From an uncultured Rickettsiales bacterium (GTDB taxonomy: Bacteria; Pseudomonadota; Alphaproteobacteria; Rickettsiales; CAIJLX01), in contig CAYPXJ010000001.1 in assembly GCA_964414595.1 (NCBI GenBank), forward strand, positions 53,443 through 113,145: DNA of 59,703 nucleotides, in the 5' to 3' direction. This document shows positions 15,256-15,507 of this stretch, in pieces (within the stretch, counting starts at the first letter, position 1; each line of letters begins with the position of its first letter). The position numbers were made by a program, and so were the translations under genes. The notes under the pieces are model-generated. The model searched no databases, was not told where the DNA came from, and saw nothing but the letters and a program-made list of their open reading frames with translations.

Positions 15256-15329
15256 TCGGGGAGAGAGGATTCGAACCTCCGACCCTCTGGTCCCAAACCA
15301 GATGCGCTACCAGGCTGCGCTACTCCCCG
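15253..15329 (-). tRNA. tRNA-Pro (anticodon UGG), CCA encoded
   Basis: Minus-strand sequence: CGGGGAG TA GCGC AGCCTGGTA GCGC A TCTGG TTTGGGA CCAGA GGGTC GGAGG TTCGAAT CCTCT CTCCCCG A CCA. 77 nt. Confidence 0.9.
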
Positions 15330-15507
15330 CCAGATTTTCACCAGATAAAAACGCGCCTGGTGTTATTTGATTCGCACATACGCTTTCGCGTATCGTGCAG
15401 GGGCTGCGCTACTCCCCGCCAGATTTTCACCAGATAAAAACGCGCCTGGTGTTATTTGATTCGCACATACGCTTTCGCGTATCGTGCAGGGGCTGCGCTA
15501 CTCCCCG
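15313..15507. repeat. Perfect tandem repeat, 89-bp unit x2 plus a 17-nt third copy. Each unit is the tRNA-Pro(UGG) 5' 17 nt plus a 72-nt upstream module.
   Basis: 15313-15401 and 15402-15490 are identical. 15491-15507 repeats only ggctgcgctactccccg. Confidence 0.9.

Follow-up and report, generated by a model that had tools for sequence, protein, structure and literature searches.

A 59,703-nt stretch of DNA from an uncultured Rickettsiales bacterium (contig CAYPXJ010000001.1, positions 53,443–113,145), called the window here, carries two tRNA-Pro genes, UGG and CGG, each preceded by a short tandem array built from the tRNA 5′ end. On the tRNA strand both loci read t17 (or t16)-L-t17-L-tRNA, where t17 is the first 17 nt of the tRNA and L is a module of 72 nt (UGG) or 69 nt (CGG). 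The feature is real, is not the footprint of a mobile element, and is a member of a recurrent, undescribed layout found upstream of tRNA-Pro genes. More interesting than the doubling is the module itself, which combines a sense decoy with a capped hairpin and an antisense copy of the tRNA 5′ end. Each array is probably, although our confidence in this is modest, a local expansion by slippage or unequal exchange of a pre-existing tRNA-derived and transcribed 5′ leader module of tRNA-Pro. Tandem repeats anchored in tRNA genes and hairpins formed by template switching are kinds already known; the sense/antisense leader before tRNA-Pro is new here.

Bacterial tRNA genes are usually viewed as a promoter plus a gene, with an unstructured leader that is trimmed by RNase P. 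Reported here is a tRNA-derived, hairpin-rich leader with sense and antisense copies of the 5′ end, which is found before all three proline isoacceptors in distant genomes and is able to multiply in tandem. The supply of tRNA-Pro is critical for frameshift avoidance and for TrmD/ProRS biology. If the module is neutral, it is a clean natural record of template switching and slippage building a structured RNA beside a highly expressed gene, as well as a caution for tRNA annotation and copy number in metagenome-assembled genomes (MAGs). If it is selected, it represents a new cis-control of tRNA folding or processing that is specific to tRNA-Pro.

Array architecture in the window

The t17-L-t17-L-tRNA architecture at both loci was first described in a sequence-only reading of the window made by a model, and is confirmed by ARAGORN, Rfam, Tandem Repeats Finder (TRF) and reading of the sequence (Table 1). 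The units are head-to-tail, each consists of a terminal tRNA fragment plus a flank, and each locus has one more fragment than flanks; these are tRNA-anchored tandem arrays. No other array in the window scores above 48 with TRF.

Table 1. Features of the two tRNA-Pro loci of the window (anti-t, inverted copy of the tRNA 5′ end; HP1 and HP2, hairpins of L)
Feature	Position	Strand	Evidence
tRNA-Pro(UGG) gene; first 17 nt (15313-15329) = proximal t17	15253-15329	minus	ARAGORN; Rfam tRNA 67.2 bits
UGG tandem array, 2 x 89 nt + 17 nt	15313-15507	minus	TRF period 89, 2.2 copies, 100% matches, score 390
UGG t17 copies	15313-15329, 15402-15418, 15491-15507	minus	read from sequence
UGG L copies, 72 nt	15330-15401, 15419-15490	minus	read from sequence
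HP1, UGG proximal L; 11-pair stem, one bulged G, GAAA tetraloop	15373-15399; second copy 15462-15488	minus	RNAfold -15.0 kcal/mol
anti-t/HP2, UGG proximal L (CACCAGGCGCGTTTTTATCTGG)	15341-15362; second copy 15430-15451	minus	RNAduplex, alignment to reverse complement, local hairpin
TATAGT, -10-like, candidate promoter for UGG array; 7 nt upstream of distal t17, without good -35	15515-15520	minus	sequence reading; weak evidence
tRNA-Pro(CGG) gene; first 17 nt (10516-10532) = proximal t17	10456-10532	minus	ARAGORN; Rfam 65.5 bits
CGG tandem array, 2 x 86 nt + 16 nt	10516-10703	minus	TRF period 86, 2.2 copies, 100% matches, score 376
CGG t copies (distal = 16 nt)	10516-10532, 10602-10618, 10688-10703	minus	read from sequence
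CGG L copies, 69 nt	10533-10601, 10619-10687	minus	read from sequence
HP1, CGG proximal L; stem as at UGG, GGAA loop	10574-10600; second copy 10660-10686	minus	RNAfold -15.0 kcal/mol
anti-t/HP2, CGG proximal L (ATGCCAGGCGCGCGATTTGGTCTGG)	10541-10565; second copy 10627-10651	minus	RNAduplex
Best sigma-70-like site, CGG: ATGAAA-N17-TATTCT, 8/12	10721-10749	minus	custom hexamer scan, 520 nt upstream; consensus match only

Position 6 of every fragment carries the base of its own locus, A at UGG and C at CGG. The L copies are 100% identical within each locus and 78% identical between loci (58/74 aligned columns), a value that corrects the 80–85% estimated by eye. The identity between loci is near-perfect in the 5′ 45 nt of L and far lower in the 3′ part; the tRNAs themselves are 88% identical. 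These figures bear out the proposal that the copies were made or homogenised locally. A 31-nt core shared by the loci occurs exactly four times in the window as opposed to zero times expected from shuffles, with the UGG matches at 15371-15401 and 15460-15490. No further copy of the core is found in the 59.7 kb with up to 3 mismatches allowed; thus there are only these four copies at the two tRNA-Pro loci.

That the arrays are an assembly artefact, the true genome having a single unit or none, is the least probable of the explanations considered. The 100% identity of the units speaks for it, as do the 2.2 copies of several MAGs, which by our reasoning are also the shortest loop traversal for k of ~108–196. 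However, independent assemblies contain diverged, unambiguous units (90% in locus L061, 6.2 copies at 95% in L064, and units of unequal length in L071), and relatives with a single L already hold the duplicated fragment. In addition, the 195-bp array has no repeated k-mer at k ≥107, which would make collapse a likelier error than invention. The copy number may thus be a lower bound: two units plus 17 nt would be the shortest assembler path through identical units for k of ~108–196, and a short-read assembler could return it for a longer array.

The leader module and its occurrence in other genomes

The L modules of the window belong to what is termed here the alpha type, which has four parts. 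A C or CC directly after position 17 results in GGGG-N10-CCCC. A capped hairpin (HP1) stands right after the fragment in all 12 modules; its stems differ between genomes, and its loops are GAAA, GGAA, GACA, GGCA, GAAG and a few triloops, mostly GNRA. The third part is an A-rich stretch and the fourth (anti-t) is a reverse complement of tRNA positions ~5–24 with the core CCAGG(CT)GCGC. The sequence-only reading had noted a 6-bp hairpin with GAAA or GGAA loops and had seen in it a hint of RNA-level constraint. The hairpin and its GNRA caps are present and point that way, but the stem length was wrong.

The UGG anti-t is a diverged inverted copy of tRNA positions 1–21 and is also self-folding (CACCAG/CUGGUG). 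With tRNA positions 1–25, RNAduplex gives −24.3 kcal/mol (shuffle p=0.046) for the UGG and −28.5 kcal/mol (p=0.012) for the CGG anti-t. From UGG to CGG the outer HP2 pairs change from C-G to U-A, which is compensatory, and from A-U to G·U, a wobble. The strong relatives show 19 matches to the tRNA (L005), 17 (L034) and 16 (L072 and L073), with duplex energies of −27 to −36 kcal/mol and shuffle p≤0.002. Where the anti-t reaches positions 4–7, as in L005 and L034, it matches the tRNA variant of that genome. The duplex energy beats shuffles at p≤0.012 in 6 of 10 alpha-type tRNA-proximal modules, and at p<0.05 in 7 of 10.

Among transition differences between inverted copy and tRNA, 17 keep a G·U pair on the tRNA-sense strand and 3 are of the opposite kind; there are 20 transversions as well. 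The 17:3 bias has p ~0.01 by our own binomial estimate given base composition, the sequences not being fully independent. Automatic alignment with RNAalifold supports only the first helix (GGGG/CCCC), and the hairpin stems are not alignable. Taken with the GNRA loops, the G·U bias and the HP2 changes suggest that transcription of L runs in the same direction as that of the tRNA, and that the helices either matter or can be tolerated only in helical form. Covariation can, however, also be mimicked by template switching and by the homogenisation of repeats (PMC8794818).

The same layout is found in other genomes. A total of 185,579 species genomes were scanned for GTAGCGCAGC-N55-85-GTAGCGCAGCYTGGTAGCGC, i.e. 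a tRNA-Pro-like 5′ segment 65–95 nt upstream of an intact tRNA-Pro. The scan gives 70 loci. In about half of these a genuine partial 5′ copy precedes a leader and the gene; the remainder are ordinary tandem tRNA-Pro genes, e.g. in Asticcacaulis. Searches with the L core and with t17-L-t17 patterns had been suggested by the sequence-only reading, and only the second kind finds anything: a 23-nt hairpin stretch of the core has no exact match in the same 185,579 genomes or in the metagenome collection. There are thus no close relatives or population variants with which the window can be compared.

Tandem arrays (unit length, copies and percent agreement in brackets) are present in the Rickettsiales MAGs L050 (86 nt, 2.2, 100%) and L061 (94 nt, 2.2, 90%), the Gammaproteobacteria MAGs L020 (67 nt, 2.3, 94%) and L064 (68 nt, 6.2, 95%), Aequoribacter L022 (91 nt, 2.3, 97%), the metagenome locus L079 (91 nt, 2.3, 98%) and Melainabacteria L056 (85 nt, 2.2, 100%, with a 16-nt fragment). 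L071, of the gamma type, has two tandem units of unequal length, 91 and 67 nt. By TRF, the register of these arrays ends at, or a few bases from, tRNA position 17.

A single L between t-fragment and tRNA-Pro is found in L072, L074, L034, L015/L084 and the Azospirillum loci L005/L073. L072, a tRNA-Pro(GGG) locus, and L074, whose tRNA-Pro(UGG) is almost identical to that of the window, were added by a second scan, of metagenomes; L084 was reached without a repeat pattern, via its neighbouring MerR gene. Thus the unit number is one in L072, L074 and L034, two in the window and L050, and two to six in gamma-type arrays. The module is present at the conserved fabH-ihfA-merR-tRNA-Pro(GGG) locus in L015, in its 81% relative L084, in L072 and in Azospirillum.

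The gamma-type arrays (L064, L020, L022, L071 and L075-L079, Aequoribacter-like) share an identical tRNA-Pro(GGG) and have unit sizes of 67/68 and 91 nt. Their leader is a visibly degenerate tRNA remainder, with the D-stem 3′ strand and an anticodon stem whose loop has been reduced to 3 nt. Decay of a full tRNA copy was also considered as the source of L, since units of 86–95 nt have the length of a tRNA plus a short spacer. This holds for the gamma type and was rejected for the window, where L has no residual similarity.

The relatedness of L modules was tested pairwise by Smith-Waterman local alignment with 1000 shuffles. Window L is similar to that of L072 at p<0.001, collinear over ~50 nt from the hairpin loop through the A-rich stretch to CCAGG...CTGGTA. 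Similarity is also found with L034 (p=0.001–0.005), L074 (p=0.004–0.03) and, for the UGG locus only, L050 (p=0.011). Leaders of Azospirillum, L015/L084, L061 and the gamma type show no significant sequence similarity to window L in these tests and have the layout alone in common. The loci with significantly similar L span all three tRNA-Pro isoacceptors. The genomes are distant: flanking proteins common to the window and to L074 or L015 are 45–49% identical. By this comparison of sequences, the base state t-fragment-L-tRNA is older than the doubling in the window and is present at all three isoacceptors.

Partial tRNA-Pro copies of other kinds are found as well. In the Planctomycetes-Verrucomicrobia-Chlamydiae (PVC) group, Acidobacteria and Armatimonadota the copies are longer and truncated, with the anticodon arm swapped for a short capped hairpin. 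Such copies lie upstream of tRNA-Pro in Planctomycetota (L002, L019, L032, L038, L054 and L067), in Kiritimatiellia/Verrucomicrobia (L035, L048 and L018) and in L059 and L010. Each comprises the 5′ strand of the acceptor stem and the entire D-arm, then a substitute anticodon arm with a 3–4 nt loop, and the first part of the T-stem. The truncated-copy unit is itself tandem in Phycisphaerae (73–82 nt, 1.8–2.5 copies). These copies appear to form a second family of tRNA-Pro decoy leaders, independent of the first.

In Microbacteriaceae (L006, L009, L027, L045 and L057), positions 1–~38 of tRNA-Pro(GGG), to the anticodon loop, are copied 79–91 nt upstream of the gene. The copy is followed by a GGGG(T/A)TCACCCC-type hairpin and is kept in Cryobacterium, Leifsonia, Frigoribacterium and Salinibacterium. 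The Rhodospirillaceae MAG L040 displays an inverted copy of the first 18 nt of tRNA-Arg(TCT), ~26–42 nt upstream of the gene (record ~4483–4530, minus strand). Over 17 aligned positions this copy shows 15 matches, 1 mismatch and 1 gap. It stands beside a GC-rich hairpin, and it overlaps the stop codon of the preceding open reading frame. Inverted 5′-end copies may thus extend beyond tRNA-Pro. A 3′ repeat is found in the Azospirillum MAG L005, which has the 5′ module at tRNA-Pro(GGG): the last ~20 nt of its tRNA-Pro(UGG) (AATCCTCTCACTCCGACCATT) are repeated ~170 nt downstream, between tRNA-Pro(UGG) and tRNA-Pro(CGG) (~1544–1750). This is a classical 3′-fragment duplication.

Probable transcription and origin of the module and its possible function

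Promoters were sought with consensus hexamers, a method that non-canonical promoters could escape. No sigma-70-like pair of ≥8/12 is found inside window L, and at the UGG locus no site of ≥8/12 is present anywhere in the 520 nt upstream, L included. The −10 of the CGG site (Table 1) ends 17 nt upstream of the distal t16. In gamma-type arrays, the one with six units included, a strong CTGGCA-N17-TATAAT precedes the distal fragment by 10–11 nt, and in L074 TTGCCA-N17-TATGTT abuts the distal t17. The orthologous locus of Micavibrio and Roseomonas, which has no module, shows a −35/−10 pair 9–10 nt upstream of the tRNA when read by hand, a pair that the hexamer scan did not flag. By these positions the distal fragment occupies the usual promoter-relative place of a tRNA 5′ end, and the [L+t17] units lie downstream of it. 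L is therefore more likely to be a transcribed leader than a promoter, as judged from the sequences.

The reverse, that L is the promoter and that the segment from promoter to position 17 was doubled to raise expression of a single-copy tRNA-Pro, appears unlikely. L061 carries TTTTCA-N17-TATAAT in its distal unit and TTTTCA-N17-GAAAAT in the proximal one, two units are present at both window loci and in L050, as might be expected if dosage were favoured, and the 3′ part of L has T-rich −10-like strings (TTTTAT, TGAAAAT, TAGGAAT). Yet these strings are 1–4 nt from the tRNA +1 or are not kept between loci, the window L lacks a pair at the threshold used, and gamma-type arrays, L074 and the CGG locus have better sites ahead of the distal fragment. 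A simple duplication would also give n fragments for n L, not n+1, and the GNRA loops and G·U bias imply that L is transcribed.

Two observations adjoin the CGG promoter-like site. A hairpin, CTCACGC-AA-GCGTGAG, is found at 10707-10722 between this site and the distal t16. Just upstream of the hairpin lies TAGGTATT, which is similar to the end of L (TAGGAATT) and could be the degenerate end of a third unit. An intrinsic terminator within L was also considered and rejected: a helix followed by UUUUUAU is seen at UGG only, the U-tract is not kept at CGG or in relatives, and the terminator scan lists nothing there.

A local origin of the arrays from a transcribed leader, the explanation preferred here, would proceed as follows. 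Comparison between genomes indicates an ancestral state of promoter, t(1–17), L and tRNA, in which L is bracketed by two direct t17 copies. L would have been built from the tRNA's own 5′ end, giving the sense fragment, the C-run, the GNRA hairpin, the A-rich stretch and the inverted copy. A direct-inverted-direct arrangement around a hairpin is the type of product expected from template switching during replication, a process that creates reverse-complement copies and RNA hairpins (PMC8794818); the switch points in this case could not be reconstructed. Each locus would then have doubled its [t17+L] separately, when the 17-nt repeats mispaired by strand slippage or underwent unequal sister-strand exchange, and the 100% identity of the copies suggests that the doubling is recent.

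Slippage between bracketing repeats would produce n L with n+1 t17, and the fragments would stay identical to the adjacent tRNA. A bracketed L with slippage or exchange thus accounts for the extra upstream fragment, the locus-specific base, and the 100% identity within and 78% between loci. The variable unit numbers, two to six in the gamma type and one or two in the alpha type, would fit such dynamics. The doubling is most simply a recent slippage product. Transcription from a promoter upstream of the distal fragment would yield a 5′ leader of ~170–190 nt. This leader would fold into GGGG..CCCC, the GNRA hairpin, and an inverted copy that is self-folded or paired with its own upstream t17, and RNase P would remove it. 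Since each inverted copy has its own sense partner, the units could multiply without trapping the real tRNA 5′ end.

The sequence-only reading had held that tandem site-specific insertion of a tiny att-bearing element would leave an extra target fragment upstream, and that a simple promoter duplication would not. Relatives with one L already have two t-fragments, and slippage gives n+1, so that no insertion is needed. An element of this kind, with L inserted at the tRNA-Pro 5′ end with a 17-bp target duplication, twice per locus, is very improbable. The boundaries at tRNA positions 1 and 17 are sharp at both loci and in other lineages, and the flanking repeats bear the base of the local tRNA, as a target duplication would. 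However, there are no more L copies in the window, and the hairpin core is unmatched in the genome and metagenome collections. The general tRNA-Pro repeat pattern has 0 matches in viral contigs, and no integrase, transposase or recombinase is found among the open reading frames flanking the loci (~±5 kb; Pfam scan of four). Finally, L is far less similar between the two loci than within them and differs completely between lineages, and the inverted copy tracks the local tRNA.

A further explanation sees in the module a natural switch in folding or processing, under selection because it sets how much tRNA-Pro matures, or when. Its segments would be the sense fragment (1), the inverted copy (2) and the real tRNA 5′ end (3). 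Pairing of 1 with 2 would free the tRNA for RNase P, and pairing of 2 with 3 would trap the 5′ end, with the distal t17 substituting for it in an aberrant cloverleaf. This is a tentative proposal and is rated as doubtful. In predictions for the isolated leader, t17 pairs with the inverted copy as a long hairpin with the capped hairpin on top in L005, L073, L034 and L061, a result that favours a switch. The leaders of the window, L050, L072 and L074 fold as three local hairpins, and in the window the pairing of t17 with anti-t is weak.

For t17+L+tRNA, the minimum free energy structure is an alternative cloverleaf in 6 of 9 modules, those of both window loci, of L072 and of the Azospirillum loci among them. 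Here the 5′ strands of the acceptor and D stems come from the distal t17, and the real tRNA 5′ end is paired with the inverted copy. When the arrays of the window are folded whole, this alternative is 5–7 kcal/mol better than leader plus cloverleaf, a margin too small to decide and one that tRNA tertiary structure and co-transcriptional folding could offset. These predictions show that the sense, antisense and sense segments could compete like the segments of an attenuator, and that a unit with both a sense and an antisense copy would neutralise itself.

The G·U-biased divergence (17 vs 3) is also in favour of a switch, but template switching and homogenisation can mimic such covariation (PMC8794818). 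Positions 1–6 of the distal fragment, which were free in the search pattern, match the local tRNA at 5–6 of 6 in most modules, and variable base 6 agrees in nearly all of those, L015 being the exception. A synthetic riboswitch that sequesters the pre-tRNA leader controls RNase P cleavage (PMC7897497). Against a switch, no ligand or signal is evident and the patchy distribution argues against an essential function. It is likewise doubtful that decoy layouts evolved repeatedly before tRNA-Pro, in Alphaproteobacteria, Gammaproteobacteria, Melainabacteria, the PVC group and Actinobacteria, as a natural cis-acting switch; if true, tRNA maturation controlled by an encoded leader would have its first natural example. 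The module may plausibly have a role in tRNA folding or processing. It may be under selection, either for a stable leader or as a control on folding or processing, or it may simply be tolerated.

Several points weigh against the preferred explanation, local expansion of a transcribed, tRNA-derived leader. An nhmmer profile of the other alpha-type L modules gives no significant match in the window, so that the homology of L is argued from pairwise tests and shared layout, and part of the L similarity is forced, as the inverted copy derives from a conserved tRNA. The inverted copy of the window is weak (alignment scores of 16.5–17 as compared with a background mean of 13.9 for unrelated tRNAs, and the RNAduplex p values of 0.046 and 0.012), yet it is positionally homologous to the copies of the relatives. 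The scan patterns demanded an exact GTAGCGCAGC in the upstream fragment and its conservation is partly ascertainment. The module is patchy, being absent at the orthologous locus of Micavibrio and Roseomonas and before the Asticcacaulis tRNA-Pro pairs. The L061 promoter inside L is near-consensus (TTTTCA-N17-TATAAT), and the leader assumption may not hold everywhere. Lastly, that one genome underwent two independent recent doublings would be coincidental, unless such expansions occur at a high rate or a pair of units is favoured.

Comparison with known systems and genomic context

The sequence-only reading knew of no described element or regulatory device with this layout, and this claim stands. 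In Rfam 15 only the tRNAs reach the gathering threshold, L having no match there, and relaxing the cut-off to E up to 10 adds none for the tRNA strand of L. The sole weak match touching an array is a chance-level miRNA model on the opposite strand, covering the distal t17 and the flank beyond. Literature searches found no published description of leader repeats made of 5′ tRNA fragments. A hammerhead-like reading of CUGCACGA...GAAA was dropped.

The closest described case is the 3′ array of E. coli tyrTV (TRF 178 bp, 3.1 copies, 95% matches), which overlaps the last 19 nt of tyrV and is annotated rttR, tpr. It is also head-to-tail, its register begins inside the tRNA gene, its unit is a terminal tRNA fragment plus flank, and it has one extra fragment. 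The tyrTV array is co-transcribed with the tRNA and processed. It differs in that it lies on the 3′ side and repeats the tRNA 3′ end in units twice as long, and no inverted copy or GNRA hairpin is described there. Moreover, tyrTV is a single species-specific case, whereas the present layout is found at three isoacceptors and in several phyla.

The att duplications of integrative elements also place a partial direct tRNA copy beside an intact gene, and tRNA-Pro genes are known integration targets (PMC9897764). In those duplications, however, the 3′ part of the tRNA is copied, the copies are kilobases apart and an integrase is present; here 5′ positions 1–17 are copied 69–72 nt apart, with no integrase among the neighbours scanned. 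MITE, REP, REPIN and RPE sequences would be expected in many dispersed copies, but the window has four, all at the two tRNA-Pro loci. Repeats of these kinds should also have fixed terminal inverted repeats, whereas the arms here (t17 and anti-t) copy the local tRNA and vary with the genome.

In the Salmonella tandem-inversion-duplication model, direct-inverted-direct arrangements with hairpin junctions are formed. Template-switch mutations, of the quasipalindrome or tandem-inversion-duplication kind, likewise produce reverse-complement copies that adjoin their source, and can create or maintain RNA stems (PMC8794818). Template switching is, however, a mutational mechanism and not a functional class, and no publication was found that places its product systematically before tRNA-Pro. 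The synthetic RNase P riboswitch resembles the proposed switch in that an alternative pairing in the pre-tRNA 5′ region decides RNase P processing (PMC7897497). It differs in being engineered and ligand-dependent, and in sequestering a single-stranded leader, not the tRNA body. Natural leader-encoded control of RNase P access was not found in the literature, only this engineered case.

Formally, the arrangement could be written like an archaeal non-canonical tRNA intron, with exon 1 (1–17), L+t17, and exon 2 (18–77), as an insertion in the D-loop. But no bulge-helix-bulge motif is present, and an RNase P cut at the proximal +1 would give the same product without splicing. Bacteria are not known to possess the splicing endonuclease. 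Bacterial group I introns of tRNA genes are at least ~200 nt and lie in the anticodon loop; the insert here is 86–89 nt, in or before the D-loop, and has no Rfam intron match. Tandem sigma-70 promoters would require correctly spaced −35/−10 pairs, which by consensus are not found in window L; L061 has one.

Ordinary housekeeping genes flank the loci; the open reading frames encode RNase D, XthA, a 724-aa orphan, a GT41-TPR protein, a methyltransferase, an NMO-like protein and a decarboxylase. The lineage is an isolated, Rickettsiales-like one within the Alphaproteobacteria. In a set of 5.8 billion proteins, the best homologues of its XthA are ~60% identical. The loci of the nearest XthA homologues (L080-L083) have no adjacent tRNA-Pro and synteny is not kept; no contig on record was found to encode the window XthA. 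A blastn search of a plasmid collection with the Azospirillum module gives tRNA bodies only.

At the 3′ end of tRNA-Pro(UGG) a perfect 19-bp palindrome (CCATCTACTTAAGCAGTGC-TA-GCACTGCTTAAGTAGATGG) is found at 15216-15255. It begins within the CCA end of the gene and is followed by TTTAGG. It is probably a terminator, though unusually long and perfect and absent from the terminator scan list.

The two tRNA-Pro genes with their arrays (10456-15507) are in direct orientation and flank a 4.7-kb segment with only two open reading frames, both on the minus strand. These are the 724-aa protein, which has no Pfam match (10955-13129), and the GT41-TPR glycosyltransferase (13186-15039). In other Alphaproteobacteria (Asticcacaulis, L069 and L070) the UGG and CGG genes are 10–30 nt apart. 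The two intervening open reading frames may have been inserted between a former tandem pair of tRNA-Pro genes.

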